Positions 191 to 18,603 of a DNA stretch of 47,727 bases are shown piece after piece. The stretch lies in the IMG/VR virus record IMGVR_UViG_3300035501_000524; one strand, 5' to 3'. The notes under the pieces are model-generated. The model saw only the letters and a list, made by a program, of their open reading frames with translations, ran no database searches and had not been told where the DNA came from. The position numbers were made by a program, and so were the translations under genes. Source of the stretch: a virus (taxonomy: Duplodnaviria > Heunggongvirae > Uroviricota > Caudoviricetes). Within the stretch, counting starts at the first letter, position 1. Each line of letters starts with the position of its first letter.

Positions 191-3100
191 ATGATATATA
201 ATGATAGAAAGGAGAATAAAATCCGTATGACAGATAAGACTAAATTTAGACCGGTCAATGGTACAGAAGAGCAAATCTTAAGCGCTTCTAAAACGCCAGG
301 ATATGTTTATTTTGCAACTGATACCGGAAGAATTTATTTAGACTTAGATCAAAATACTCGTATTTCTATGGGCGGTAGTGGTGTTGCTTTATTATATGGT
401 AAAGCTGATACCATCAGTCCAGATGAACAAGGTTTTTACACTTTGAGTTTTGATGATCTTGAGGATGATGTAACTCCAAAAGAAGGAGATCTTATTTTAA
501 ATAAAGATGGAATCTTCTATCGAGTTATGGAAGCGGATTCTGATTCACGCTCTATGCTTTGCGCAATTCTCGCAGTAAGCGGAAGTGGTGGATCAGGTGG
601 CGGTGGTACATCTAGTTTATCTAAGAAAATTGGTATTACCATTCAGCCATTGTCAACAAGTAATCTAATCAATGGTCAGTCTTTTGGAGTATACTTTACT
701 GCAAATTCTGGAGTTGATTATGATGGCTCTGTTATGGATGATAAATTAATAGTTCATTGGACTCTATATGAAAAAGTTGATTCAACTTATATTAAATATA
801 GTGAAGGCCAAATGGATGTTAACTCTGGTGAATTAACAGAATTTGAGTTAGGCGAAAAATTAAGAGAATCAACATCATCTCGTTTAACTATGTATGCTAG
901 TGGTATTAATAGTGGTGAGAGTGCTTCTAAGAGCGTTGATGTTGTTACTGGACAGTTATCATTAACTCAGTCTCAAAATTTCTCAGCAACCGCACGTTAT
1001 ACACCAGATAATGTTAAGTTACAGTGTAATGCAATCGGAAGTATGAATAAAATTCTTGATTTCTATTTTGATGGAACTTTAGTTGAATCTAAAAAATTAA
1101 CTTCTTCATCTGAAAACTTCCAGAGCTATACTGTAAGTTCTAGTTATGCAACACATGGTTATCATTCAGTTCGTATTGAATTATATCAAGCTATTGTCGT
1201 AAGTAATACATGGTCTAGAGGATTGATGGTAGATCCAATAGAATTTGAAATTGGTGTATTCGCAACAGGTAATACAGATCCGGTAATTTGGTTGGGAACT
1301 TATAATGAAGAGTATTATAATTATGATACAATTCAAATTCCATTCTTGGTATACGATCCTTCAAGCACAGCCTCTGCGCACATCGTATTAAGAAAAAATG
1401 GTAAGGAAATCGCAAGTTCTCCTCGTGATATTGATACTACTACAATGAGTTCTTGGAATATCTTTGAAATTGCAGATGCAGATTTGGATATGGTAAATAG
1501 ATATTCTATTTCTTGCGGCGACATAACAAGAGATATTACCTTTACTGTAGTTCAAGACCCGAACAGAACAATGGAAGTTGTTAAACAAGAGTCCTTGAAA
1601 TTGAACTTTGACGCAAAGGGTCGTTCAAATAGTGAATCCGCAGTTAATCGTGAAACATGGACTACTGATGATGGTTCTATTAAAGCTACATTTAAGGATT
1701 TCAACTGGTATAATAATGGTTGGGTTCTTGATGATGACAATAATACTTGTTTACGTATTAGTAATGGAGCAGAATTTTCTATTCCTATTGGAACATTAAC
1801 TTATGGTTCAACTGATATTTCTAAACAGTCTAACTCTATTGAAATTCAATTCAGAGTTCGTAATGTACAGGATTACTCAAGCTTGATTCATAACGTAACA
1901 CGTTACAATGGTGATGATAAATTCTATACAGCATTTAAAGCGCAGTCTTACTATACTAACTACGATTCATTCCTTCATTATTACCTTCCTCTTTACAATG
2001 CAACTGTAAGTGAAGATCAACAGGTAGATTATGATGATCTTGAGTTTAGTAGAGTTCAGAAAGAGATTAGCTTAAATCGAGTTGCTTGTAGTTATTACTC
2101 AGGTGACGAAAGTGGAGCTGTAGGAATCTGTCTTGGACCGCAAGATGCATTCTTTTCTAATGGAACAAATACTGTAAACGTAAGTTATGTTGAGGATCAG
2201 TTAATCAATATTTCTATGGTATACTCTCATGGTAGCGACCAGATGATGTATATTTATATTAATGGTGTTTTAACTGGTGTTATTAAATCAACAATCGGTC
2301 TATTCACAATTAACTCAAATAAGATTGTATTTAATTCTAATTATTGCGATATTGACTTATACAAAATTAGAGTTTATAATACAGACTTAAATGTAAATGA
2401 TATTGTTACTAACTACTCAGTAGATTTAAAAAATGTAACTATTTACGATCAAAATAAACTTGCAGAAGAAAATACTGCAATTCATGAATATCAGTTTAAA
2501 TATGATAACATGATTAAGTATAATGATGAACATCCAAGTGCTCCTTTAATGCCTTATATCATTTTTGATACAAGTGCAACTGGAAATAATGATAAGCTTT
2601 CTTATTCTAAGAAAACTAAAATTAATATTGGTGTTGAATTCATTAATACCGGTCTTGATAGAGCATATGCTAATGGCGAGTTAGAGAAATATGCTATTGA
2701 AGATGGTTTATGTACCGCTAATTCTAGCGCAGAAGAAAAAGAAGCAGCTGTTAAGAAATATTATCAGCATCATTGCCCAAGCTTTATTGGCGATAATATC
2801 AGCATGGCTGTTCAAGGAACATCTTCAGAGTTCTATCCAAGACGTAACTATAAATTAAAGACTAAGAATACAGATAAAGATGGTGTAGATAGAATTCATA
2901 TCTTCTTACATAAAGGTCCATTCGCTGCAGATTATGCAGAGGATTCAGAAAATACTCGTCAGAAATTCTTCTACATGGATAACTATACAAATGGTACAAC
3001 TAAGTTCACTATGAAGATTGACTACATGGAGTCTTCTGGAACTTATAATATGGGCTTTACAAGCTTAATTCATAATGGTTATTCTAAACATCCTTTAAAA

Positions 3101-6100
3101 GATTACAACGATGCGGGAGCATTCCAGAAGCAAGTTGAAAATTATGATAAAGCTACAAGCTTTAAAGAGGGTGAAACATATTATCAGTATGATGCATCTT
3201 CTAATAAGTATTCTAAGACAAAAGATACAGTAGATGCAAATAATGTTACTGACTATTATGTATCTAATCCAAAATATGAGGATTATACATTTAAAGACCT
3301 TGATGACTATAGAACCTGTATTACAGGTTATAGAGTTTTAGCTTTCCATAAGAAATCAGATGGAACTTATCAGTACATTGGTATGTATAACATGCTTCTG
3401 GATAAAGGATCTGATGAAGTTTATGGATTTAAACCAGATAAAACTCTTACACAGAAATTCTTAAAGAATAAAGCAATTAGTAAGAAAGCTGAATGTTGGG
3501 AATTTGAAAATAACGCTCGTGGATTTTGTTCATTTAGAGATCCTTGGGGAAGAAGAGAATTATCCTTCAAAGCTCCAGAAAGCGCAGGAAGTAGTGGTTT
3601 CACCTCAGCTAATGCGCCAGTAGTTGCTGATAGTTTTGAGTATCGTTATAATGCAAATGATGACATTCTTGACATTCTCGTTGCTTTAAGTTCTGCATCT
3701 GATGAAGACGAAAAAACTGTTAATGAGAGCTTCCCAGATTATTACATTAAACAGGATCCAACAGATGGACAAGAATTACTATTAGACTTATACAGCAACT
3801 GGGAAAAAGCTGTTAAATGGGTATGGTCAACCTGTACTGAAAATGTAAAAAGCCAAGGCAATTATGTTGAAACTAACGTAGGAAAACAGCTCTATCAGCC
3901 TAATGAATTCTATATCTATGATGAGACAGAAAACGATTACGTTCTTTCAACTGCAAAAGAATGTGATGATTCTTTAACATATTATTCACAAGCTAAAGAT
4001 GGATCTTATGTAAACGCGTATGCTTGTTCATCAGAGAATTTATTCAAAGTAAGTACATTCTATACAATCGTTAATGGTGAATACGTATTATCTGGTGAAA
4101 CTAGTGAATTTGATGAATCTGAAACATATTACAAGTTAATTGACTTCAGTGATGAAGAATTAGCTAAAATAGCAGATAGACTTGTTGAAGTTTGCAATGA
4201 TGAAATATTTGATCCAAGCCAAACATATTATGCCTATGATGGTTCTGTAACTGGTTCTGACTTAGCTACTAAGGTAGTTAAAGTAACAGAAGACACTTAT
4301 GAGCCTGGTAAGTATTATATCGGAAAAGACGTTACTTATGGTAAACATGTTTATAAGTTTGATACAAAAGAATATCGTGCAGATAAATTCGTTTATGAAT
4401 TATCTTCTCACTTTGATATTGAATATGTAGCAACTTATTTCGTAGCTACTGAGGTTATGGAATGTTATGACTCTCGTGGAAAGAACTGTATGATGGCTTC
4501 TTGGGGCCCGCAAAAAGACGGTGGAGATTACATCTGGTATCCAATTTTCTATGATCTTGATACTCAGTTAGGTATTAACAATACTGGTATTCCTTCATTT
4601 GAATATAACGTGGATGCAACAGAAGATGGAAACTTCTCTACATCAGATAGTGTCCTTTGGAATAACTTCTATAAATATTTCAAAGATTCTTATATCGTTA
4701 TGAAATATAAACATCTTAAAGGTGTTACAGATGGAGTTTCTTGGACAAAGCTTGAGCACGCACCATTCTATAGCGTAGATAGAATTGAGAATTGGTATAC
4801 AACTAATCCTTATTGTAGTGAAGAAGTTATGACAACTAATAACAATGCTAAGAAAGTTCAAAGTTTTGCTAAATTAGGAGAAAGACCTTTAATTGCTGTT
4901 AATTTAGATGAATATTATAAGTATATTACAATTTGTAACAGTTCTAGTTATCAGAATGGAGTTACAGGTCATATTGGCACGGCTGGGGATTATACATACG
5001 ATGCGAATGGAACTTACTTCTACGCATTACAAGGAGATCGTTCTTTAAGTAGACAGCAGTTCTTAACAAATCGTTTGGAATATATTGATTCTTGGTTGAA
5101 TCAAGGTAACTATCAACGTGGAGGCGCGAACCGTGTCCGCGGACGTGTGGCCGCAAATAATTCGAATAAAACTTCTGATATTTGGGTTGAAACAGATAAA
5201 GAGCCATACTACAAAGAAGATGGAACGAAGTCTAATTTATTCGATGCTGAGTATTGGTTGAATTTAACACCAATTCGTTCTTCTTATGTAACAGTAAGTG
5301 ATGATAATGAAGCTTATCCTTCTCAGAAGTATGATGGTGTCAATCCAGTCAAATTTAACATTGATGCTATTGAGCAAGGTGTTCGTAAGAGCGCCAACTA
5401 CCCAGAGCAGTTGTTATATATTTACGGATTAAATCAGATGGCTGATTTAGGTGACATGAGTAACCTATATTGGCAAGAGTTTGAAATTTCCGGAAATGCT
5501 TCTAAATTAACTAGACTTTTACTAGGATATGATGGAGTAGATGAAAGCGGAAATAAATGGAAAAATAATAATGTTAACCAGTTCAGTATTCCTTCTAGTA
5601 AATCCTCTTCTGGAATGCCATTATTGAAAGAAGCTAACTTTAGTAATATTTCAGTAAATGGTCAATCTCCAGTCCTTGATTTTACAAGTTGTGAAAAAAT
5701 GCAGAACTTCCGTGCTACTGGATCAAACTTCACAGAGATTAAATTTGCTGAGGGCGTAGCTTTACATACATTATATTTACCAAGTTCAATTACTACTTTA
5801 AGCTTAACTGAAGCAAACTTGTTAACTAATTTAATTACCGATTATCAAGTTCCACAGAGAGATGATAATGGTAATTTAGTAGCTGAAAAAGGTTTATATA
5901 TACAAGGAATGTTTGAGGGTCAAGGAGATACAGTAATTGATAATTTAAGTTTACTTGGTGGAAATCTTGGATACGATAGTTATAAATTACTTGCAAAATA
6001 CTTCGAGCTTCGACGAAGACAGACAGCTTCTATTAGTAAAATTGCAATGACTAATGTTGATTGGTGTCCATATAAGCAGTTAGTTGAAGGAGATTCTTAT

Positions 6101-7741
6101 GATATTTCTAATTCTGACGCTTATTATATTGATAATGGTCATTACGGATTTGATAAATACACTTATAATGCAGCAACATTCCAGACTCAAGTTTTGAATG
6201 GAGAACTTTATAAGCTTGATTCTTCAATTCCAGAAGAAGATATTAATCAAATCGCTGATGTTGAGATGTTAAGAACATTTATTGATAATGGATTATATAC
6301 TGGAACCGCAGAAGGAAGTACAATTCCGAACTTGACAGGTATTATTTATGTTAATAATGATACCGCTTTAGGAGAGCTCTTTATTAAAGATACTCTTGTA
6401 AAAGCATTCCCGAGTTTAACATTCTTCTTTAAGAATGTAAATAAAGCTTACTCCGCTAAATTCATTATCCAAGAGGATGATGGAACTTACACTTATGTAG
6501 ATCATGCAGATACGAAAGTAACTGAGAAGAGTGTTCAGAAGGTTTCTTCTGGAGAATTCTTTACAAATCCATATAAGATGTACAATCCAGTAAAAGATAA
6601 CTACGATTTCCATGGTTGGTCAACAACTAATGATACAACAGGTTTAATTTCAAGTGCAGATGCTACTGCGGAAGAACAGCAAGCTGCTTGGGATGAGTTA
6701 ACATTAGACAACGATGTATATGATTATACATTCTATGCAGTGTTTACTATTCATAAATGGAATATTAGATTCTTATCTGGTACAAAAACTGATAATTTAA
6801 CATTAATTGCTGAATATCAAGTTCCTCATGGAGATGTTCTTTATACTCCAAGTGTATTGGCTACATTGGATGAAAGTGCATTACCTGATGATCAAAGATA
6901 TAAGTTCTTAGGTTATACTCAGAATTTAGCAAATGTAATTGCGGCAAGCGCAGATACAGCTAAATTAACATCTGTAACTAATATGCTTTCAACACAGGAT
7001 ACAGATTTTTATGCAGTATTTACTCAAGAATCAGTATTTACTTCTACTACAGATTTTAAATACTTAAAGTTCTCAAAAACATCCTATACAGATCCATATG
7101 ATAGCTCTTATAGTGCGACTGGATACATGGTAAGACCAGCTGATGGATATTCATTATCTGGTAAAATTACTTTGCCAACTGAATATGATGGTCAACCAAT
7201 CATTAGTGTTGGAGGATTTGGCTCAATGGATATTACTCATGTTTATTGGTATGGAACTCCACAGGTAGTATCTATAGGTAGTAACGCATTTAATGGCTGT
7301 AAAAAATTAGTTTATTTCCAGTTCCCAGGGACAGTCAGATTTATTACTGGTTCTGCATTCGTAGGGTGCAATCAGTTAAAATTATTTGATTTTGGAAATA
7401 TTTTATGTTATATTGGTGAACTTGCTTTCAATATGACATTTAACTCTTCTACAAAAACTGAAAAACTTAGAATTCCAGGTACAGTAAGAGAAATTGGTAA
7501 CTATGCTTTTGCTTACAATGATAATATGAGAGGTATTGCAACTCTTCAGTTCGGAGGACCTGGAGATCCAACTCAAATTACTGCTATTGGTGGTAACTCT
7601 AAAGCTTTTATTCAAAATAGCGGAGCTAAAATTGAGAACGTTGTAGTTTATACATCTGATGGAACTATTTCTGATAATTTAATGAGCTTGATCAATAAGG
7701 GTGTTGAGTATGAAGGAACTATTAGCGTAGTTATGGCTTAA
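191..7741 (+). CDS. Giant multidomain virion/tail-associated protein: LamG-like region, CotH-like atypical kinase, LRR region, InlB-B-repeat-like units and C-terminal BspA-type LRRs (true start probably ATG 227)
   Basis: QGTSSEFYPRRNYKLK, YIGMYNM, YDSRGKN and WYPIFYDLDTQLG resemble CotH kinase motifs; DIDLYKIRVYNTDL is LamG-like; VVSIGSNAFNGCKKL, VRFITGSAFVGCNQL and VREIGNYAFAYN are LRR_5-like; AAGGAG RBS lies just upstream of ATG 227. Confidence 0.75.
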   Translation: MIYNDRKENKIRMTDKTKFRPVNGTEEQILSASKTPGYVYFATDTGRIYLDLDQNTRISMGGSGVALLYGKADTISPDEQGFYTLSFDDLEDDVTPKEGDLILNKDGIFYRVMEADSDSRSMLCAILAVSGSGGSGGGGTSSLSKKIGITIQPLSTSNLINGQSFGVYFTANSGVDYDGSVMDDKLIVHWTLYEKVDSTYIKYSEGQMDVNSGELTEFELGEKLRESTSSRLTMYASGINSGESASKSVDVVTGQLSLTQSQNFSATARYTPDNVKLQCNAIGSMNKILDFYFDGTLVESKKLTSSSENFQSYTVSSSYATHGYHSVRIELYQAIVVSNTWSRGLMVDPIEFEIGVFATGNTDPVIWLGTYNEEYYNYDTIQIPFLVYDPSSTASAHIVLRKNGKEIASSPRDIDTTTMSSWNIFEIADADLDMVNRYSISCGDITRDITFTVVQDPNRTMEVVKQESLKLNFDAKGRSNSESAVNRETWTTDDGSIKATFKDFNWYNNGWVLDDDNNTCLRISNGAEFSIPIGTLTYGSTDISKQSNSIEIQFRVRNVQDYSSLIHNVTRYNGDDKFYTAFKAQSYYTNYDSFLHYYLPLYNATVSEDQQVDYDDLEFSRVQKEISLNRVACSYYSGDESGAVGICLGPQDAFFSNGTNTVNVSYVEDQLINISMVYSHGSDQMMYIYINGVLTGVIKSTIGLFTINSNKIVFNSNYCDIDLYKIRVYNTDLNVNDIVTNYSVDLKNVTIYDQNKLAEENTAIHEYQFKYDNMIKYNDEHPSAPLMPYIIFDTSATGNNDKLSYSKKTKINIGVEFINTGLDRAYANGELEKYAIEDGLCTANSSAEEKEAAVKKYYQHHCPSFIGDNISMAVQGTSSEFYPRRNYKLKTKNTDKDGVDRIHIFLHKGPFAADYAEDSENTRQKFFYMDNYTNGTTKFTMKIDYMESSGTYNMGFTSLIHNGYSKHPLKDYNDAGAFQKQVENYDKATSFKEGETYYQYDASSNKYSKTKDTVDANNVTDYYVSNPKYEDYTFKDLDDYRTCITGYRVLAFHKKSDGTYQYIGMYNMLLDKGSDEVYGFKPDKTLTQKFLKNKAISKKAECWEFENNARGFCSFRDPWGRRELSFKAPESAGSSGFTSANAPVVADSFEYRYNANDDILDILVALSSASDEDEKTVNESFPDYYIKQDPTDGQELLLDLYSNWEKAVKWVWSTCTENVKSQGNYVETNVGKQLYQPNEFYIYDETENDYVLSTAKECDDSLTYYSQAKDGSYVNAYACSSENLFKVSTFYTIVNGEYVLSGETSEFDESETYYKLIDFSDEELAKIADRLVEVCNDEIFDPSQTYYAYDGSVTGSDLATKVVKVTEDTYEPGKYYIGKDVTYGKHVYKFDTKEYRADKFVYELSSHFDIEYVATYFVATEVMECYDSRGKNCMMASWGPQKDGGDYIWYPIFYDLDTQLGINNTGIPSFEYNVDATEDGNFSTSDSVLWNNFYKYFKDSYIVMKYKHLKGVTDGVSWTKLEHAPFYSVDRIENWYTTNPYCSEEVMTTNNNAKKVQSFAKLGERPLIAVNLDEYYKYITICNSSSYQNGVTGHIGTAGDYTYDANGTYFYALQGDRSLSRQQFLTNRLEYIDSWLNQGNYQRGGANRVRGRVAANNSNKTSDIWVETDKEPYYKEDGTKSNLFDAEYWLNLTPIRSSYVTVSDDNEAYPSQKYDGVNPVKFNIDAIEQGVRKSANYPEQLLYIYGLNQMADLGDMSNLYWQEFEISGNASKLTRLLLGYDGVDESGNKWKNNNVNQFSIPSSKSSSGMPLLKEANFSNISVNGQSPVLDFTSCEKMQNFRATGSNFTEIKFAEGVALHTLYLPSSITTLSLTEANLLTNLITDYQVPQRDDNGNLVAEKGLYIQGMFEGQGDTVIDNLSLLGGNLGYDSYKLLAKYFELRRRQTASISKIAMTNVDWCPYKQLVEGDSYDISNSDAYYIDNGHYGFDKYTYNAATFQTQVLNGELYKLDSSIPEEDINQIADVEMLRTFIDNGLYTGTAEGSTIPNLTGIIYVNNDTALGELFIKDTLVKAFPSLTFFFKNVNKAYSAKFIIQEDDGTYTYVDHADTKVTEKSVQKVSSGEFFTNPYKMYNPVKDNYDFHGWSTTNDTTGLISSADATAEEQQAAWDELTLDNDVYDYTFYAVFTIHKWNIRFLSGTKTDNLTLIAEYQVPHGDVLYTPSVLATLDESALPDDQRYKFLGYTQNLANVIAASADTAKLTSVTNMLSTQDTDFYAVFTQESVFTSTTDFKYLKFSKTSYTDPYDSSYSATGYMVRPADGYSLSGKITLPTEYDGQPIISVGGFGSMDITHVYWYGTPQVVSIGSNAFNGCKKLVYFQFPGTVRFITGSAFVGCNQLKLFDFGNILCYIGELAFNMTFNSSTKTEKLRIPGTVREIGNYAFAYNDNMRGIATLQFGGPGDPTQITAIGGNSKAFIQNSGAKIENVVVYTSDGTISDNLMSLINKGVEYEGTISVVMA

Positions 7742-8071: not shown

Positions 8072-10003
8072 ATGATTACATATGTTAATGCAGCAAATTC
8101 AGATAAGTATTCTGCTATATTTGAAAAAGCTTTTAATGATTTGCAGACGCATGATGCATCAGGTAAAGAAGTTGAAAAAGGTAGTTCTTCAGCAGTAATT
8201 CCTGATAGTGCGATCGGAACTGGAGTCTTTGATGAAGATGGCCAAGAAATTAAAATGCAATCTCTTAGCTCTCTTGATGAATACTTTTCTTATATCGTTG
8301 AATTAAACAACATTAGTCGTAGATATACTATTCTTCCATTAGACGAAGATGTTTTTGAAATTAACGCAAATGATAGAAGTATTACAGTACCAGCTTCTTT
8401 TAAGAAAAATGGTATTAGTGTACAAGGAGATGAAGTTTCTGAAATCATTTATTTCCGTATTGCTAGATTCTACGACTCTACTGACTTAGATACAAAAGAT
8501 ATCTATATTCAGTGGAAATCTGCCGCACAGGACGAAGATGGTAATTTTATTGAAGGTGTTTCTGTTCCTTGGGTAAAGGATATTGAAAGTGATCCTGGCT
8601 ACATTATTTTCGGTTGGCCTTTATCTTCTAAAATTACCAAAGCCGCAGGTACAATTCAATTCGCTGTTCGTTTTTATAACTATGATAAAGATACTGATAC
8701 TCTTAATTATAGTTTATCAACATTGACTTGTTCAGCAACTATTAAGCCAGGCTTAGATTTTGATATTCCAGGAATTATTCTTGATGGAACTCAAATTGAT
8801 GATTCTACAACTCTATTACATGATAGACTTGTTGATTCTCAACTTGCTTCTGGAGCTGTTCAGGCTGAAAAACCGGAATTTATTAAGAATCTTGTTAAGA
8901 GACTTATTCTTGATGACAATGGACTTAAAGTTTATAGTGTTCAAGCTTATGCACCAGATGCAGGCCAATTAACTTACATTTGGAAGAAATATGATATTGA
9001 TACCAATGATAGAATTCTTGAAGAAGGTGCAATGCCTTATGAAATAACAATGTCTAAGATTTCAGCTGATGAAACAAGGGTAAAAGGAAAACTTTATTAT
9101 ACTCTAGTAAGTGGTTCTGATGGCGTGAATCCATCTTATCAGCTTTATACAGGTGATATCCCTTCAGAAGATCCGACACTTGACATTTATGAGAAATTCT
9201 CTACTGGTACTTTAAATTCTGTTGGTAAATATGTTGTTGTAGCTAAAAACCGTGTACGTCAAAGCACAGCTGAGACAGAAAGTGAAGTTTGTATTGTACC
9301 TCGTCCATCAAAAGTTAATATCAATAAAGATCTTAATGAAAGAGATTATCTCTCACCAGATGATTATGAAGCAGTATTAAGTGTATCAGCTAGCGTTGAG
9401 GATGAAGGAAAAATTACTTATCAATGGTTATACAAAGCTCCCGGCACAGATGAATTCGAGGAGATTGAAGGCGCAACTGAAGCGACTTATATCATCCAGG
9501 GTTCTGCAAATGAAAGCGAAGAAACTGGTGGCGAAGGTGATGGATTCTATAAAGTTATTGTAACTAATAATTTGAATAAAGAAATTGATTCTACTGATAG
9601 CGGAGTTTGTCGTGTAACTCATCCTGCAACTCAGTTAAATGTTCAAATTAATTCTGCACTTTCTAAACAGTACTTCTCATTAAGCGAAGTTCAGAAAAGT
9701 AATGGTTGCGTTATTGTAGCTAGCTGGCCAGAAGGAAGCGGAGAAGTTATTCAGAGACAGGATGAAGATTCTGTAACTTATCAATGGTATAAATATGTTA
9801 CTGATGGAAATGTATTTGAAGAGGATCTCCAGAAGTCTAATGAAGGAGAATACTATTTCCATGGTGACTCTAAGATTGAGGGCGCAACTGAAAAATCCTT
9901 CATTCCAGATGCACAAGGTTATTATTTCTGTGAAGTAACTAATACTTATAATAACACTCAGGCCAAGAGATGTTCTCCATTCTTTGGTATCGCTGACGTT
10001 TAA
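8072..10003 (+). CDS. BppU-like baseplate/tail protein with C-terminal Ig-like domains
   Basis: VQGDEVSEIIYFRIARFYDSTDL...IYIQW...IIFGWPLSSKIT..AGTIQFAVRF resembles the BppU N-terminal domain; repeated ITYQW...IEGATE...GxYxVxVTN are Ig-like strand patterns. Confidence 0.7.
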   Translation: MITYVNAANSDKYSAIFEKAFNDLQTHDASGKEVEKGSSSAVIPDSAIGTGVFDEDGQEIKMQSLSSLDEYFSYIVELNNISRRYTILPLDEDVFEINANDRSITVPASFKKNGISVQGDEVSEIIYFRIARFYDSTDLDTKDIYIQWKSAAQDEDGNFIEGVSVPWVKDIESDPGYIIFGWPLSSKITKAAGTIQFAVRFYNYDKDTDTLNYSLSTLTCSATIKPGLDFDIPGIILDGTQIDDSTTLLHDRLVDSQLASGAVQAEKPEFIKNLVKRLILDDNGLKVYSVQAYAPDAGQLTYIWKKYDIDTNDRILEEGAMPYEITMSKISADETRVKGKLYYTLVSGSDGVNPSYQLYTGDIPSEDPTLDIYEKFSTGTLNSVGKYVVVAKNRVRQSTAETESEVCIVPRPSKVNINKDLNERDYLSPDDYEAVLSVSASVEDEGKITYQWLYKAPGTDEFEEIEGATEATYIIQGSANESEETGGEGDGFYKVIVTNNLNKEIDSTDSGVCRVTHPATQLNVQINSALSKQYFSLSEVQKSNGCVIVASWPEGSGEVIQRQDEDSVTYQWYKYVTDGNVFEEDLQKSNEGEYYFHGDSKIEGATEKSFIPDAQGYYFCEVTNTYNNTQAKRCSPFFGIADV

Positions 10004-10762: not shown

Positions 10763-13700
10763 ATGGCTAATAATGTAAAATTTACTACAGGTTTAGAATC
10801 TAATTTACCAAGTACCAAAGAAGCCGGTAAAGTTTACTTTGCCGTTAATGATAATAATGAAGGCTCTATTTACTTTGATAAAGATAGTAATACTAGAGTT
10901 AAAATGACAACTGCCGCAAGATCACTTACGATTAATGGTGTTGAAAAAGGTACTGCTAGTTTAGATAATTCTTCTAACCCTACTATTACTTTGAAATCAA
11001 ATACCTTCGTAATCGGCACAGGAGCAACCGCAGGAACATGGACTGGTTCTCTCGATGGAACAGGAATTTCTGCTTTATATGATGGTTTAATTATTGATTA
11101 TTGGACAAATATTGCCGGAAAAAGCTCTAGTCCTTATACAACTTTAAATTTAGCTTTAACAAATGGACAAGAAACTGGAGCTAAGAATGTTTATTATGGA
11201 GGAACTACTAGGTTAGGAACTCATTATGCAGTTGGAAATATTTTAAGAATGGTTTATCGTTCTGGAGTAAGTATTAATGGAACTACTTATGAGGGATGGT
11301 GGGTAACTGCCCAATATGATTCCAATACTTATGATAGATTAAGATATTCACAAGCGATTAAAGCGAGTACTGCAATCACTGGCAAAAATATTATTGTTGG
11401 AAAAGATGGAGGTTATTTTCATTTAAACAGTGGAAATGATTTTGATATTACATATCCAATTATGTATGCAATTTCAAATATTTCTGCTTCTAGCACAGGA
11501 ACAGACAATTATTTAACTATTCCATTTACAATTACAACAACTCAAAGTATTACATTAACTGCATATCAGCCAGTTTATATTAAGGGTACTTTAAATGGAA
11601 CGACTTTTACGCCAATTAGTACAACACCATTAGTTCAAACTGTTGGTGATGATGGATATTATATTTTGCTTGGTGTAGCTTATAGCACTACTGGTGTTTA
11701 TTTATTACCAGAAAATCCTGTTTATGCGAATGCTAATGGGGTTATTGGACAAGTTGCTAATTTAGCAAGAACTGCTCAATACGCTCAATACGCTTCTGGC
11801 GATACTACACCCATCAGAGAGAAATATATCAGCGAATTATCTCTTAGTGGACAAACTTTAACGGTTATAAAAGGAGACAATAATAAATCTACTTTAACTA
11901 CTCAAGATCAAAATGTTACACAAACTGCGACTTCTACAAATGCTAATTACGAGGTGCTATTTTCTAATACAGCAGATAATACTACTAGAACTGAAGGCGC
12001 TAGAAAAAATAGTAATTTAACTTTTAATCCAAGTACTGGAAAACTTACCGCAACTACTTTTGCGGGTGTTTTATCTGGAAATGCATCAACCGCAAGTGCA
12101 TGGGCTACAAGTAGCTTATTTTATATTCAAGATGATGATGGCCATCAAGGTTCTGGTGTTGGAGTAAATGGTAGTGCTTCCGAGGTAATTTTAAAATTAC
12201 CATCTACTATCAAAGCAACTTTAGAAGGTAATGCAGATAGTGCTACTAAATTGGCTACACCTATAACTATCCAAACTGATCTCTCTTCTACCTCAGCTGC
12301 TTCTTTTGATGGTTCTGTTAGTATAACCCCTGGTATAACAGGTACTTTAGCAGTTGGTCATGGAGGCACTGGCGCAACTACATTTACTCTTGGCTATGCT
12401 TTAATTGGTAATGGTACTAGTGCGATTGCAACAAGAGCTATTACTAATAATGCTTCGATCAGCGCAGTTACTGCTAATACGAATTTAATTACAGCTAATA
12501 CATTGGCTTATTGGAATGGTGCTTATTCTGGCACATCTTCTAATCTTGCTTATCTAGGAATAGTTAAGGGTGGAACTTGGAACGCTACAACTATTGGAAC
12601 TGCTTATGGAGGTACTGGCTTAACTAGTTTTACAGCTAATAGAATTTATTATCCGAGTTCAACATCTGCATTAAGCGCATCTTCTCATTATATAAATAGT
12701 TCTAAGATAGCTATTAATAGTACATCAGAACCATCTTATAATTTTTATGTTAATGGATCAAGTTATTTAGGCGGAAATATAACCACTTCTGGAATAAATA
12801 TTAATTATGCAGGCTCTCAGAAAACTTGGAGTATGATTCGTTTTATTGATAACACTTCTAATGTTTATGGAAATGGAATTTCTATTGGCGGTGGTGGTGT
12901 GGTTTTAGTTGGAGCAGGCGAGAGTGCTAGTAATATGGAAAGTTTAGTTAGCCCATACGCTGAAACACTATATTTATTATCTGATGCTGCGATTAATTTA
13001 GAAGCAAATGCAAATAGTACTGCCAATAGAATTGGTGCTCAAATAACTACATCTGGTAATATAGTTCCTATAAAAGCTGAAGAAACGAATGCAAATGCTC
13101 AAAGTCTTGGTGTAAGTGGGAATGGATGGAGTAAACTATATGTGGGCTCTGATGATTCTTATGGTGATTCAACAATTCCGATCTACTGGAATAATGGAGT
13201 TCCAACAGCTTGTACATATAGTTTAAATTCAAAAGTAAATAGTAGTGGCACTTCTAATACATTAGCTTATTATTCTGGAACAAATGAAATTAGTTCTTAT
13301 ACATCTCCTAAAGGTAGTGGAATTAAATTATGGTATTTAAATGCTGGAGTTCCAACAGAAAGTAGTTCAACAGTTGGGTCTAGTACTGATCCAGTATATT
13401 TAAATTCTGGCACTATTACAAAATGTCTTTATTCATTAGGGGCAAATGTAAAGAGTGGAACTGCAAATCGAGCTACTTATTTTAATGAATCAAATACAGT
13501 ATCTGCGGCAGGTTCAATTTATATGACAAGTAGTCAAATTGGTATTAATACAACTTCATTAAGTTCGCCATATTTGATTACAACTTCTTCAAACACTCAA
13601 ACTACAGTAACCCCTTCTCTGCAAGTTAACGGATACTCATATTATACAAATACAGCTATATATGCAGCTGATATGAGAGCTATTGAATTTAGACCTTCTG

Positions 13701-14986
13701 GAAGTATATATAATTCATATATTTATTTTGGAACTGCTGGTAATGAAGCTTTAAACTTTGTAAATAATCAATCTCTTACATCATTTATTTTTTGGACTGG
13801 GAATAGAGTTGAAGGCAGTAGTCAATGGTTTCTTGATAGTGATGGTAATGGACGATCTGATAATCCAGCATTACAGATAAAAAAGAATTGTGTTTATATT
13901 AATAAATTACTTTCAGATGGAGTTACTCCTGGTTATAACCTATATGTAAATGGAACAAGTTTTTTTAATGGACAAATTACTTCAGCAGGAAATATAGATC
14001 CTTTAACAGATAGCCTTTCGCTTGGATCTTCTGATTATAAATGGAGTAAATTATATGTTGGAACAGCAGATTCTTATGGAAGTTCTACAAAACCTATTTA
14101 TTGGAATGCTGGTGTCCCAGCTGCTTGCACTTATAGCTTAAATGCAGCAGTCTTTAGTGGCACTGAATATGGCGTTGCTTATTATTCTACTGCAGTGAGT
14201 CTTACTAGTACCAGTGCAGGAACTTCTGGATATTTGCTTCAAGGGAATGGTTCAGCGGCTCCTTCATGGATTCAAGCAACTAACTCTAATACTGCAAGTA
14301 CAGTAGTAAAGCGTGATTCAAGTGGTAATTTTAGTGCAGGAACTATTACTGCCAGCTTATTAGGAGATGCAACAACTTCTTCTTATCCGCTTGGATTTGA
14401 TAGTAGAGAATCATCTTGGACATGGGGAACCCTTACGACTGATAATGACTATACTCAAATAACAAATTGGAAAACATCTAATGGTTCAAGTATTGCTTTT
14501 GCTGAAAAAAATAAAGCTCTTTATCTTCAAATAGATGGTTTTATTTATCAAAATGAAGGTAAATATCTTGTTCTTGATAATAATAATTATACTAATTATA
14601 CTGTAACTCAAACTGGTTCTGGAGCTTCTGGAACTTGGGGTATTAGTATCTCAGGAACTGCTGCTAAAGCAACTCAACTTGCTACTGCGAGACGTTTATG
14701 GGGTAATTCTTTTAATGGCACCGCTGATATTAGCGGAAATATCACTGTTAGCGTAGACGGAGAAGCTAATTTAACCCTTACACGTACAGATACAAATACC
14801 TCTGGAGGTATGTATGTTCAAGGATATGAAGATGGATCTCTTGGATTCAGGACTCGTGTAGGATCTGATTCTTGGGATTATTTATTATATTTACGTAGCG
14901 ATTATGGTGTTATTCTTACAACTAAAAATCGTGGAACTTCACTTCCATCAAGTGGAGTAAATGGACAAATATTTTTTAAATATTAA
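10763..14986 (+). CDS. Long tail fibre / receptor-binding protein
   Basis: S/T/G/N-rich; fibre-typical segments GNADSATKLAT, GTLAVGHGGTGATT, IGTAYGGTGLTS, VVKRDSSGNFSAGTITA, ARRLWGNSFNGTADI; internal repeats. Confidence 0.85.
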   Translation: MANNVKFTTGLESNLPSTKEAGKVYFAVNDNNEGSIYFDKDSNTRVKMTTAARSLTINGVEKGTASLDNSSNPTITLKSNTFVIGTGATAGTWTGSLDGTGISALYDGLIIDYWTNIAGKSSSPYTTLNLALTNGQETGAKNVYYGGTTRLGTHYAVGNILRMVYRSGVSINGTTYEGWWVTAQYDSNTYDRLRYSQAIKASTAITGKNIIVGKDGGYFHLNSGNDFDITYPIMYAISNISASSTGTDNYLTIPFTITTTQSITLTAYQPVYIKGTLNGTTFTPISTTPLVQTVGDDGYYILLGVAYSTTGVYLLPENPVYANANGVIGQVANLARTAQYAQYASGDTTPIREKYISELSLSGQTLTVIKGDNNKSTLTTQDQNVTQTATSTNANYEVLFSNTADNTTRTEGARKNSNLTFNPSTGKLTATTFAGVLSGNASTASAWATSSLFYIQDDDGHQGSGVGVNGSASEVILKLPSTIKATLEGNADSATKLATPITIQTDLSSTSAASFDGSVSITPGITGTLAVGHGGTGATTFTLGYALIGNGTSAIATRAITNNASISAVTANTNLITANTLAYWNGAYSGTSSNLAYLGIVKGGTWNATTIGTAYGGTGLTSFTANRIYYPSSTSALSASSHYINSSKIAINSTSEPSYNFYVNGSSYLGGNITTSGININYAGSQKTWSMIRFIDNTSNVYGNGISIGGGGVVLVGAGESASNMESLVSPYAETLYLLSDAAINLEANANSTANRIGAQITTSGNIVPIKAEETNANAQSLGVSGNGWSKLYVGSDDSYGDSTIPIYWNNGVPTACTYSLNSKVNSSGTSNTLAYYSGTNEISSYTSPKGSGIKLWYLNAGVPTESSSTVGSSTDPVYLNSGTITKCLYSLGANVKSGTANRATYFNESNTVSAAGSIYMTSSQIGINTTSLSSPYLITTSSNTQTTVTPSLQVNGYSYYTNTAIYAADMRAIEFRPSGSIYNSYIYFGTAGNEALNFVNNQSLTSFIFWTGNRVEGSSQWFLDSDGNGRSDNPALQIKKNCVYINKLLSDGVTPGYNLYVNGTSFFNGQITSAGNIDPLTDSLSLGSSDYKWSKLYVGTADSYGSSTKPIYWNAGVPAACTYSLNAAVFSGTEYGVAYYSTAVSLTSTSAGTSGYLLQGNGSAAPSWIQATNSNTASTVVKRDSSGNFSAGTITASLLGDATTSSYPLGFDSRESSWTWGTLTTDNDYTQITNWKTSNGSSIAFAEKNKALYLQIDGFIYQNEGKYLVLDNNNYTNYTVTQTGSGASGTWGISISGTAAKATQLATARRLWGNSFNGTADISGNITVSVDGEANLTLTRTDTNTSGGMYVQGYEDGSLGFRTRVGSDSWDYLLYLRSDYGVILTTKNRGTSLPSSGVNGQIFFKY

Positions 14987-16282: not shown

Positions 16283-16741
16283 ATGTATCCTACAAATAAT
16301 AGCTATTATAACCAAATGCAACCTCAAACTCAATACTATCAAAATCAGATGCAGAGTCCTTCTTCAATGATGCGTCCTCAGATGATGGCGACTGTAAAAG
16401 GTAGACCTGTATCATCTATTGAAGAAGCGAGAGCTGCTACAATAGATTTTGATGGTTCGATTTTTTATTTCCCAGATTTGGCAAATAAAAAAATTTACAC
16501 AAAGCAGATAAATATGGATGGCACAGCCACACTAAACATGTACGAATTGAAAGAAATGCCTGTTGAACCACCGTTGAATAGTTCTGCTTATGTAACACGA
16601 GAAGAATTTGAGATAGCTATGACTCAATTAAAAAGTTTTTTAAGTCAACCTTCTACGGCATCGACGACCCCGATGAGCGAGCCGCAACCGCAAAAAGCTG
16701 AACAAGAAAAATCAAAAGAGCCATTAAACTTAAACTTTTAA
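16283..16741 (+). CDS. Cassette gene 1: hypothetical protein with Q/M/Y-rich low-complexity N-terminus and a compact central domain
   Basis: AAGGA RBS; NQMQPQTQYYQNQMQSPSSMMRPQMM followed by VKGRPVSSIEEARAATIDFDGSIFYF. Confidence 0.85.
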   Translation: MYPTNNSYYNQMQPQTQYYQNQMQSPSSMMRPQMMATVKGRPVSSIEEARAATIDFDGSIFYFPDLANKKIYTKQINMDGTATLNMYELKEMPVEPPLNSSAYVTREEFEIAMTQLKSFLSQPSTASTTPMSEPQPQKAEQEKSKEPLNLNF

Positions 16742-16753
16742 GGAGGTAATATA

Positions 16754-16993
16754 ATGAATATTAATCCTATGCAGTTTATTCAATTAATTAGAAATGGCGG
16801 AAACCCACAACAATTAATGATGAATCTTTTAAGCCAAATGCAGGGAACTCCTATGGGTAACAACCTCTTAAGTATGGCGCAAGCTAATGATACAAAAGGT
16901 ATTGAACAATTAGCTAGAAATTTATGCCAACAGAGAGGTGTAGATTTTGACCAAGAATTTAGTAATTTTAAACAAATGCTTGGCCTCAGATAA
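16754..16993 (+). CDS. Cassette gene 2: small Q/M/N-rich helical hypothetical protein
   Basis: AAGGAGG RBS; MNINPMQFIQLIRNGGNPQQLMMNLL. Confidence 0.85.
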   Translation: MNINPMQFIQLIRNGGNPQQLMMNLLSQMQGTPMGNNLLSMAQANDTKGIEQLARNLCQQRGVDFDQEFSNFKQMLGLR

Positions 16994-17013
16994 TTTTAAA
17001 AGGAGGAACCAAT

Positions 17014-17730
17014 ATGTTTAATCAAGGTTCAGGATATTCATTATCAGATATTGCAGCTGCTTCTGGAAATCGTGGAGAAGCTGGCTGGACAGATGGCATG
17101 GGAGCTTGGTGGATTATAATCCTATTCTTATTCGTCTTTATGGGCGGAGGTTGGGGAGGCAACTGGGGTAATGGAGCTAATTCAGCTGCAACTCAGGGCG
17201 CCTTAACTAGAGCAGATTTAAGTCAAGACTTAAACTTCCAGAATGTAGAAAATGGTGTTAGAGGAGTTCAGCAAGGACTTTGTGATGGATTCTATACTAA
17301 CAACACAACTCTATTGACCAATTTTGGTAACGTGCAACGTGATTTGTGTACAGGATTTAGTTCTGTTGCACAAGGTTTTAATACAGTAAACGCTAACTTA
17401 GCTGATAATCGTTATGCAATGCAGTCTTGTTGCTGTGATACAAACCGCAATATAGATGCAGTTAGATATGATAATTCTCGAAATACTTGTGAAATAACTC
17501 AAGCAATTAGAGAAGAAGCTGAACAAACAAGAGCTTTAATTAATGCTAACACAATGCAAGAGTTACGTGATAGATTAGAAGCTAAGAATAATGAGCTACA
17601 GTCAGCTAACTTCCAGTTATCTCAATGCGCTCAGAACGCTTACTTAGTAAATGAACTTCGTCCATGTCCAATTCCTGCATATTTGACGGGTAGTCCATAT
17701 GCAGCTTATTCTAATGGATGTAGTTGTTAA
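17014..17730 (+). CDS. Cassette gene 3: Gly/Trp-rich hydrophobic N-terminus, coiled-coil, Cys-rich (SCCCD, C-terminal GCSC)
   Basis: AGGAGG RBS; AWWIIILFLFVFMGGGWGGNWG; helical heptad-like segment. Confidence 0.85.
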   Translation: MFNQGSGYSLSDIAAASGNRGEAGWTDGMGAWWIIILFLFVFMGGGWGGNWGNGANSAATQGALTRADLSQDLNFQNVENGVRGVQQGLCDGFYTNNTTLLTNFGNVQRDLCTGFSSVAQGFNTVNANLADNRYAMQSCCCDTNRNIDAVRYDNSRNTCEITQAIREEAEQTRALINANTMQELRDRLEAKNNELQSANFQLSQCAQNAYLVNELRPCPIPAYLTGSPYAAYSNGCSC

Positions 17731-17757
17731 GTAAATAAGTAAAGGAGATTTGTATTT

Positions 17758-18177
17758 ATGGAAATTACTGCGACAACAGCTCAAACAGTAGCAGCTAATC
17801 AAGATATATTATTTACGAATACTGCGGTTGAAGGTAACTGCAGTATTCTCCATAGAAGTGGAAGCGGGCTTGTTAATTTGCGCGGTCTAACGCAACAATG
17901 CAGAGCTCGTTACAGAGTCACTTTTGGATGTAATATAGCAGTTCCAACAGGTGGCACAGCTGATTCAATCTCGGTAGCAATTACTATTGATGGAGAACCT
18001 ATTGCTTCTTCAATGATGATTTCTACTCCTGGAGCAGTTGATGATTATAATTCAGTATCTGGCGCAATTTTTATTGATGTCCCAAAAGGATGCTGCTCTC
18101 AAGTTAGTATTAAAAATACTTCAACACAATCTATCTTAGTTCAAAATGCTAATTTAATTGTTGAAAGGGTGGCGTAA
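17758..18177 (+). CDS. Cassette gene 4: Cys-containing beta-sandwich protein resembling the BclA C-terminal/C1q-TNF-like fold
   Basis: AAGGAG RBS; TTAQTVAANQDILF...YRVTFGCNIA...SVAITIDGEPI...VSIKNTS...NANLIVERV strand pattern. Confidence 0.75.
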   Translation: MEITATTAQTVAANQDILFTNTAVEGNCSILHRSGSGLVNLRGLTQQCRARYRVTFGCNIAVPTGGTADSISVAITIDGEPIASSMMISTPGAVDDYNSVSGAIFIDVPKGCCSQVSIKNTSTQSILVQNANLIVERVA

Positions 18178-18603
18178 ATGAAAGATCTTAAAAGAATGAA
18201 AAAAATGCTTATGGAACAAGTGGAAATGGAATTAGAAAATCCACAGTGCGCAGATACTAAAGAATTAGGCGAAGTTGTAGATATGATTAAAGATATTGCT
18301 GAAACAATGTATTATTGCAGCATTGTAAAAGCAATGGAAGAATCAGATTCAGAAGAAATTATGACGCATCATGATGCCTATCAACCGCACACAATGAAAG
18401 AAGATAGACCTATTGAAAAACATTATCACGAATATAAAGAAGTTAAAAAAATGAGTAATGACCCAATTCTTTCAATGCAACACCTTGAAGGCTATATCAA
18501 TGAGCTTCAAAAAGATGTAATGGAAATGGCATCCACTGCATCTCCAGAAGAAAAACAACTGCTACAAAAGAAGATAGCTGTACTTGCTTCTAAATTAGCA
18601 TAA
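18178..18603 (+). CDS. Cassette gene 5: helical, Met/Glu-rich hypothetical protein
   Basis: ATG directly follows the TAA of gene 4 (translational coupling); DTKELGEVVDMIKDIAETMYYC. Confidence 0.85.
   Translation: MKDLKRMKKMLMEQVEMELENPQCADTKELGEVVDMIKDIAETMYYCSIVKAMEESDSEEIMTHHDAYQPHTMKEDRPIEKHYHEYKEVKKMSNDPILSMQHLEGYINELQKDVMEMASTASPEEKQLLQKKIAVLASKLA

Follow-up and report, generated by a model that had tools for sequence, protein, structure and literature searches.

A divergent CotH-like kinase domain in a giant modular tail-region protein of a gut-type phage

Giant phage proteins with CotH-like domains

Wu et al. (PMC5758913) described targets of diversity-generating retroelements (DGRs) of ~2,000 amino acids (aa) with weak CotH and Laminin_G_3 matches, and Roux et al. 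(bioRxiv 10.1101/2020.04.01.020958) modelled such a DGR target and speculated that it manipulates host signalling. CotH was listed by Benler et al. (PMC8008677) as the third phage kinase family, 'currently unstudied', and Macadangdang et al. (bioRxiv 10.1101/2024.11.15.621889) reported CotH active-site motifs beside carbohydrate-binding and leucine-rich repeat (LRR) domains. In this study, we analysed P0001, a 2,516-aa protein encoded in a stretch of 47,727 nucleotides (nt) of the virus record IMGVR_UViG_3300035501_000524 (Caudoviricetes), which is referred to below as the window. The window comes from a complete virus record of 175,638 bp (~176 kb, gut-type phage) that has terminal repeats. 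The novelty implied by a preliminary description of this sequence, which had noted a CotH-like kinase domain in P0001, was overstated, as reports of CotH domains in phage proteins of ~2,000 aa go back to 2017. The class of giant CotH-bearing phage proteins is already known, and P0001 alone is an annotation-level result on that class.

The DGR variable protein of the Hankyphage (Bacteroides phage p00; 2,245 aa) was collinear with aa 141-1876 of P0001 when compared by hhalign (99.8%, E 3e-28). The class to which the Hankyphage protein belongs has been named 'category f1' (Wu et al. 2018, PMC5758913), PC_00012 (Roux et al., bioRxiv 10.1101/2020.04.01.020958), and 'domain group 3' (Macadangdang et al., bioRxiv 10.1101/2024.11.15.621889). 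Both proteins have an immunoglobulin (Ig)-like array, a Laminin_G/concanavalin A (ConA)-like lectin, a CotH-like domain, and LRRs in the same order, and they share the QGTSS, D-x3-K-N, and YD.D motifs. The Hankyphage gene follows tail genes, including a minor tail protein gene, just as the P0001 gene lies in a run of tail genes. The tips of the two proteins differ: that of the Hankyphage protein is a C-type-lectin variable region diversified by the DGR (reverse transcriptase, template repeat, and variable region), whereas that of P0001 is a BspA-type LRR. In addition, the QGTSS motif and the catalytic loop are 551 aa apart in P0001 as compared to 259 aa in the Hankyphage protein, which keeps a Lys at the position of Arg885 (R885) of P0001.

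The protein XTK82179.1 (1,673 aa) of the Heliusvirales phage NatCom_3357 matched P0001 nearly end to end (aa 208-2443; hhalign 100%, E 1e-68) and carries a sub-threshold CotH match together with a C-terminal LRR_5. Its gene comes after a large gene and the gene for the distal tail protein (Dit), and the holin and endolysin genes follow it. Unlike P0001, this protein is without the large insertions in the kinase domain, is ~840 aa shorter, and has 'RK' instead of 'RR' in the N-lobe motif; its phage has 48 kb, as compared to 176 kb for the phage encoding P0001. Bacillus phage G gp353 (2,056 aa) has a Laminin_G_3, CotH, and LRR architecture, and with 60 bits its CotH domain is above the Pfam cut-off. 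It matched P0001 in two pieces, one comprising the lectin and the N-lobe (97.1%) and the other the C-lobe (98.5-98.9%). The CotH domain of gp353 is compact (~390 aa), lacks the insertions, and keeps the Lys, while the N- and C-terminal regions of gp353 are different and the host is of the Bacillus type. CotH of Bacillus itself (PF08757; PDB 5JD9/5JDA, Nguyen et al. 2016, as cited in PMC7821199 and PMC12189002) is a stand-alone protein of ~360 aa that acts on CotB and CotG in the mother cell. In contrast, the domain of P0001 is embedded in 2,516 aa, is stretched to ~780 aa, has ~10% structure-based identity to Bacillus CotH, and has an Arg for the Lys.

P0001 belongs to the family of the Hankyphage DGR target because its full-length profile is collinear with that protein; the NatCom_3357 protein is of the same family, and gp353 is more distant. 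The conserved body of these proteins consists of the Ig array, the lectin, the CotH domain, and the LRRs, and the tip is exchangeable between a BspA-type LRR and a DGR-diversified C-type lectin. P0001 has the features of the giant Laminin_G-CotH phage proteins, namely a size of at least ~2,000 aa, a ConA lectin followed by a CotH-like domain and then LRRs, and collinearity with the members. Its relatives number in the hundreds and are proteins of 2,100-2,900 aa encoded on viral contigs of 100-240 kb. A profile search of 1.84 billion representatives gave 1,575 clusters (50% identity) at E <= 1e-3, with 368 at E <= 1e-30; most of the 1,575 clusters fell within the same range of length and had the CotH-like domain at the same relative position. 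The P0001-type family is very common in gut and rumen phages, and almost no member of these clusters is annotated as CotH because Pfam misses them.

CotH homology and catalytic residues of P0001

The region of aa ~860-1640 of P0001 is a genuine, highly divergent protein-kinase-like domain of the atypical CotH branch. The preliminary description had recognised five ordered motifs as the mark of such a domain, and all five were found in the open frame of P0001 at exactly the nucleotides it gave. The span that it assigned to the domain (2813-4573) does run from the first to the last motif, but the full domain is wider (Table 1). To compare the region with CotH, 20 proteins annotated with PF08757 were aligned and compared with the family profile of P0001 by hhalign. 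The C-lobe (Prob 99.5%, E 1e-22) and the N-lobe (Prob 97.3%, E 2e-11) both matched this set, and the middle block containing YIGMYNM was collinear with it (E 0.003). Homology to bona fide CotH domains thus covers both lobes, and all five motifs map collinearly, so their order does reflect CotH homology as had been proposed. Furthermore, aa ~1398-1634 matched gp353 in a tblastn search (E 3e-12), in line with the profile match to this protein (98.9%), which itself scores 60 bits on PF08757. The predicted structure of the domain has the atypical protein-kinase-like fold of CotH (PDB 5JD9/5JDA); the structural match on which the preliminary description had staked its claim was therefore found. That description had labelled the domain CotH/Fam20C-like. 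Only the CotH half of the label held: Fam20C-like secretory kinases and PI3K-PI4K lipid kinases were considered as closest kin and rejected, as their matches were far weaker than that of CotH and no similarity to them was detected at the sequence level.

Pfam hmmscan gave no CotH match for the whole protein, for three pieces of it (E up to 10), or for aa 801-1670; it reported the BspA-type LRR only, as did the precomputed Pfam annotation of the relatives. A six-frame search with PF08757 reached 21.6 bits at nt 4301-4720 (E 8.7e-6), a match restricted to model positions 131-265. PF08757 was matched independently by six of 17 close relatives and six of 20 distant relatives, and was the only recurrent enzymatic family among them.

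Table 1 Features of the P0001 gene and its neighbourhood
Feature	Position (nt)	Strand	Remarks
Whole gene, 2,516-aa modular tail-region protein (P0001)	191..7741	+	Single open frame, table 11
N-terminal domain (aa 1-128), then Gly/Ser linker (aa 129-142)	191..616	+	N-terminal block conserved in all relatives
Beta-sandwich (Ig/macroglobulin-like) array, aa ~143-460	617..1570	+	AlphaFold2 model m40a5e8b6baed, pLDDT 80-95
ConA-like lectin jelly roll, aa ~461-750	1571..2440	+	Structure-based
CotH-family protein-kinase-like domain with insertions, aa ~860-1640	2768..5110	+	
N-lobe motif QGTSS..YPRRNYK, aa 875-890	2813..2860	+	Aligns with QGTSS..YPKKN of PF08757 proteins
N-lobe motif KIDYMESSG.YN, aa 941-953	3011..3049	+	Aligns with LKANYID.SHARN of PF08757 proteins; invariant
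Variable insertion 1, N-lobe, aa ~965-1040	3083..3310	+	Identity 0.25, gap fraction 0.34, length-variable
Motif YIGMYNM, aa 1062-1068	3374..3394	+	Collinear with G.YTWNIPKD of CotH proteins
Tyr-rich beta-hairpin insertion, aa ~1223-1388	3857..4354	+	Between N-lobe/helical part and catalytic loop
Motif YDSRGKN, aa 1426-1432	4466..4486	+	Catalytic loop D1427-S-R-G-K-N1432 at 4469..4486
Motif PIFYDLDTQLG, aa 1451-1461	4541..4573	+	Y1454-D1455-L-D1457 at 4550..4561
C-terminal binding region: LRR-like segment, Listeria-Bacteroides repeat, BspA-type LRR (aa 2361-2447)	5111..7741	+	
643-aa protein	8072-10003		Weak Hoc-like Ig-domain PHROG match
1,407-aa protein	10763-14986		No family match
Tape measure gene	G000:C1:138728-148888 (L056:375-10535)	- in record	~20 kb upstream of window
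pLDDT, predicted local distance difference test. G000, complete 175,638-bp record.

The conservation of the motifs was examined in alignments of 24 and 17 relatives with 43-62% identity. The core residues of all five motifs were invariant in both alignments, and since they are invariant among relatives at such low identity, the motifs are not due to chance. The sliding conservation profile placed the best-conserved stretch of P0001 at residues 1401-1500 (identity 0.78-0.89), which contain the last two motifs, and the pattern D-x4-N...[YWF]DxD was kept in 118 of 120 close relatives. The roles of CotH residues were taken from PMC7821199 and PMC12189002. CotH keeps the equivalents of D166, N171, and D184 of protein kinase A (PKA), and the adenine is sandwiched by Tyr142 and Trp245 in BcCotH (PMC12189002); the D228Q and D251A variants of B. 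subtilis CotH (BsCotH) are catalytically inactive (PMC7821199). The invariant catalytic-loop residues D1427 and N1432 of P0001, which align with DnLGKN of the PF08757 proteins and DGFVHN of 5jd9, are the equivalents of PKA D166 and N171, and D1427 corresponds to BsCotH D228. YDLD aligns with YDLD of the PF08757 proteins and WDYD of 5jd9, and its D1455, also invariant, is the equivalent of the metal-binding Asp (PKA D184, BsCotH D251). The two Asp residues of 5jd9 are 23 residues apart, the same spacing as between D228 and D251 of BsCotH. Y1454, an invariant aromatic residue, takes the place of BcCotH W245. The adenine-stacking Tyr (equivalent to BcCotH Tyr142) is probably Y1066, a candidate suggested by the G.Y motif. 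The catalytic Asp, the Asn, and the metal-binding Asp were invariant across relatives down to ~22% overall identity.

The domain is more than 400 aa longer than a canonical CotH, and its insertions are specific to the family. The 551 residues between QGTSS and the catalytic loop compare with 231-259 in gp353, NatCom_3357, and Hankyphage. Besides the variable insertion in the N-lobe, a second source of the excess length is a larger insertion that ends with a Tyr-rich beta-hairpin module. This module consists of beta-strands (pLDDT 85-92) with recurring TYY, YV.L, and FD.S patterns; it is missing in the relatives L043-L052 and varies in length in others. Pfam gave no match to it, and an ESM-Atlas lookup gave no usable match. 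The hairpin may act as a binding module in its own right. The CotH-like domain extends to about aa 1640, its final helix being aligned with the one at the C-terminus of CotH.

Proposed function of the domain and alternative explanations

The best explanation of these results is that P0001 is a fibre-type tail protein whose divergent CotH domain would be an active ATP-dependent phosphotransferase acting during assembly (probability about 0.6). The domain keeps the phosphotransfer residues of CotH, namely the catalytic Asp, the Asn, the metal-binding Asp, and the aromatic residue preceding it, and would transfer phosphate from ATP most likely during late expression and virion assembly. Its targets would be P0001 itself or neighbouring tail or fibre proteins, and binding to the host surface would fall to the lectin and LRR modules. 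CotH offers a model parallel, as it helps to assemble the spore coat, is part of it, and is also its kinase. Action at the time of assembly is preferred because ATP is plentiful only inside the infected cell, and catalysis is favoured over a dead scaffold because the Asp/Asn/Asp set is invariant in the most conserved segment.

Several observations weigh against this explanation. The score on PF08757 did not reach the gathering cut-off of 23.8 bits, although this cut-off is an operational threshold and not a biological feature, and six of 17 relatives do match the model. When the region and two family profiles were searched against the PDB sequences by phmmer/hmmsearch, no kinase was matched but only LRR proteins, and gp353 alone had no match there; Foldseek on the model, taken by itself, was not significant. 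The first AlphaFold2 model had a mean pLDDT of 67, with active-site loops below 50. The CotH-conserved Lys of YP.KN, beside the Asn, is R885 in P0001 and Arg in 117 of 120 close relatives. A Lys occupies this position in 55 of 56 gp353-like CotH proteins and in gp353, Hankyphage, NatCom_3357, and BcCotH, and is invariant in the PF08757 set. If this Lys contacts the ATP phosphates, the chemistry or the substrate of P0001 may differ. Moreover, little ATP is available to a virion protein once it is outside the cell. Among the 374 open reading frames (ORFs) of at least 60 aa, none encoded an obvious substrate that is Ser-rich and basic like CotB or CotG, and the literature held no assay, proteome, or phosphoproteome for any member of the class. 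The sole Ser-plus-basic segment in the genome is a short Gly/Ser/Arg-rich (SG/RG) stretch near aa 2290-2320 of the tape measure protein; it was the only candidate for a CotG/CotB-like substrate and was too weak to call.

The Arg at position 885, the large insertions that split the domain, the low-confidence active-site loops, and the scarcity of ATP outside cells would also fit a pseudokinase kept in an adhesin-type fibre as a rigid scaffold or as a module binding a nucleotide, a phosphosugar, or a host surface molecule. P0001 is built of binding modules (Ig-like, lectin, and LRRs), and the CotH proteins of Mucorales are known mainly as surface invasins. However, pseudokinases usually lose at least one of the residues that are invariant here to ~22% identity within the most conserved segment. 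In addition, 'RK' forms of the N-lobe motif were found in 11 of 114 more distant relatives, and since these have a Lys at the position of the Arg, the change looks conservative. Because the K-to-R substitution is conservative, the P0001 family is best regarded as a CotH-like subfamily that has diverged. A pseudokinase is possible, though on balance doubtful.

An enzyme active at the host surface during adsorption is quite improbable. Such a domain would be a Fam20B/POMK-like kinase or phosphotransferase for glycans or small molecules, targeted by the lectin and the LRRs to an envelope component (glycan, teichoic acid, capsule, or surface protein). The domain does stand directly after the ConA-like lectin and before the LRR binding domains, surface-modifying enzymes are common on tail fibres, and many bacterial CotH proteins are fused to domains of the extracellular type, e.g. 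Big_2 and Laminin_G_3; the K-to-R change could likewise reflect a different phosphate donor or acceptor. Against these points, no ATP source is known at the cell surface, no evidence for a non-protein substrate was found in the CotH family, and no substrate is identifiable from the sequence of P0001. It is very unlikely indeed that P0001 is an effector, injected or intracellular, which phosphorylates host proteins to take over the cell, rather than a fibre. Phage kinases acting on host proteins do exist, such as T7 gp0.7 and 933W Stk among the examples cited in PMC8008677, and Roux et al. proposed manipulation of host signalling for CotH-bearing DGR targets. However, the gene lies in a late run of tail genes downstream of the tape measure gene, its product comprises 2,516 aa of adhesin-type modules with a hypervariable binding tip, and the homologues sit at the position of receptor-binding proteins just before the lysis genes.

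A more novel reading is that the virion displays the domain as an active phosphotransferase. The targets would be either tail or fibre proteins, phosphorylated in assembly so that the fibre is charged as CotH charges spore-coat proteins, or else a glycan or protein of the host envelope, modified when the virion makes contact. The invariant K-to-R change and the Tyr-rich hairpin would then be adaptations to a donor or substrate of an unusual kind. We consider this reading rather unlikely.

Other modules, gene neighbourhood and significance

P0001 is a modular protein of the fibre or adhesin type, with an N-terminal domain, an Ig-like array, a ConA-like lectin, the CotH domain, LRRs, and a variable BspA-LRR tip. 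A second AlphaFold2 model (m40a5e8b6baed; aa 1-860, pLDDT 83) showed a small beta-rich domain at aa 1-128, which is possibly an attachment module, and a linker with pLDDT below 50. The beta-sandwich array resembled CD109, complement C3, the Sap S-layer protein, and adhesins by Foldseek (E 1e-8 to 1e-10). No Laminin_G signal was obtained by hhalign of the N-terminal part of P0001 with the CotH set, and the lectin was established structurally instead. In the C-terminal region, the BspA-type LRR scored 49.7-51.8 bits on Pfam LRR_5 and the Listeria-Bacteroides repeat (Flg_new) was weak, and there were profile matches to BspA-like LRR structures such as 4fs7 and 4gt6. The jelly roll and the LRRs flank the CotH-like domain, which bears out the lectin-like and LRR neighbours expected from the preliminary description. 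The sliding conservation profile showed the C-terminal 300 residues to be the least conserved part of P0001 (identity ~0.28-0.39), the identity dropping to 0.28-0.39 beyond aa 2150. PHROG matches of P0001 were limited to families of unknown function.

The placement of the gene near the tail genes was also confirmed. The tape measure gene (3,386 aa; phrog_4211, E 5e-66) lies seven genes upstream on the same strand and is followed, in order, by ORFs of ~1,800-1,900, 128, 858, 968, 1,814, 328, and ~530 aa and then by the P0001 gene. The 968-aa ORF matched a tail PHROG (E 3e-10), and ORFs of 643, 195, and 1,407 aa are located downstream of the P0001 gene. Counting the upstream giants and the downstream genes, the run after the tape measure gene contains at least six ORFs of at least 850 aa. 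From its gene position and domain content, P0001 can reasonably be assigned a distal tail or fibre role. Nothing was found in support of a link between P0001 and the cassette at 16283-18603, whose products had been suggested as targets of the kinase. Ahead of the P0001 gene, a promoter-like site at 81-110 would fire into a GC-rich hairpin of 15 bp with a T-run at 146-180, which ends 10 nt before the ATG at 191.

A DGR in this genome was considered and rejected: there was no PF00078 reverse transcriptase match in the complete 175,638-bp genome, the 3' 842 nt of the gene recurred nowhere else as a template repeat, and P0001 carries a BspA-type LRR at its C-terminus. Since this member is without a DGR, the DGR is an optional add-on of the protein class. 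As for a partner phosphatase, no PP2C was found, and there was none near the P0001 gene. Two Metallophos genes (G000 ~46.8 and ~54.2 kb), more than 16 kb outside the window and away from the tail genes, were not linked to the kinase. In Bacillus phage G, gp352, which is annotated as a metallophosphoesterase, directly precedes the CotH-bearing gp353 (L002, JN638751.1 259582-268352), and the two may form a kinase/phosphoesterase pair.

The P0001 orthologues of loci L008, L011-L015, L031, L032, L034, L043-L047, L051, L052, and L054 contain up to 14 in-frame TAG codons, and those of loci L017, L018, and L033 contain one to nine in-frame TGA codons. The gene in the window has no in-frame TAG or TGA. 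Reading TAG as Q and TGA as W restored good alignments of the orthologues; therefore, the relatives use at least two stop-codon recodings in this late gene.

Protein kinases are, to our knowledge, rare in phages, and we know of none that is part of a tail fibre. The family of P0001 includes the Hankyphage DGR target, and few hypervariable phage proteins are as widespread in the human gut as this one. What P0001 adds to the known class is a CotH body that occurs without a DGR and tolerates insertions of more than 400 residues, together with a Lys-to-Arg change that provides a natural handle for mutational tests. A virion-displayed active kinase, if confirmed, would be the first case in which kinase activity has been demonstrated within the host-recognition apparatus of a phage and would explain why more than 1,000 clusters of giant gut-phage proteins keep the domain. 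If the domain is inactive, it would represent a striking reuse of the kinase fold as a structural module; an active domain would bring phosphorylation into phage assembly or adsorption as a new ingredient. P0001 is chiefly of value as a candidate, clear and open to testing, for a kinase that forms part of a phage fibre.

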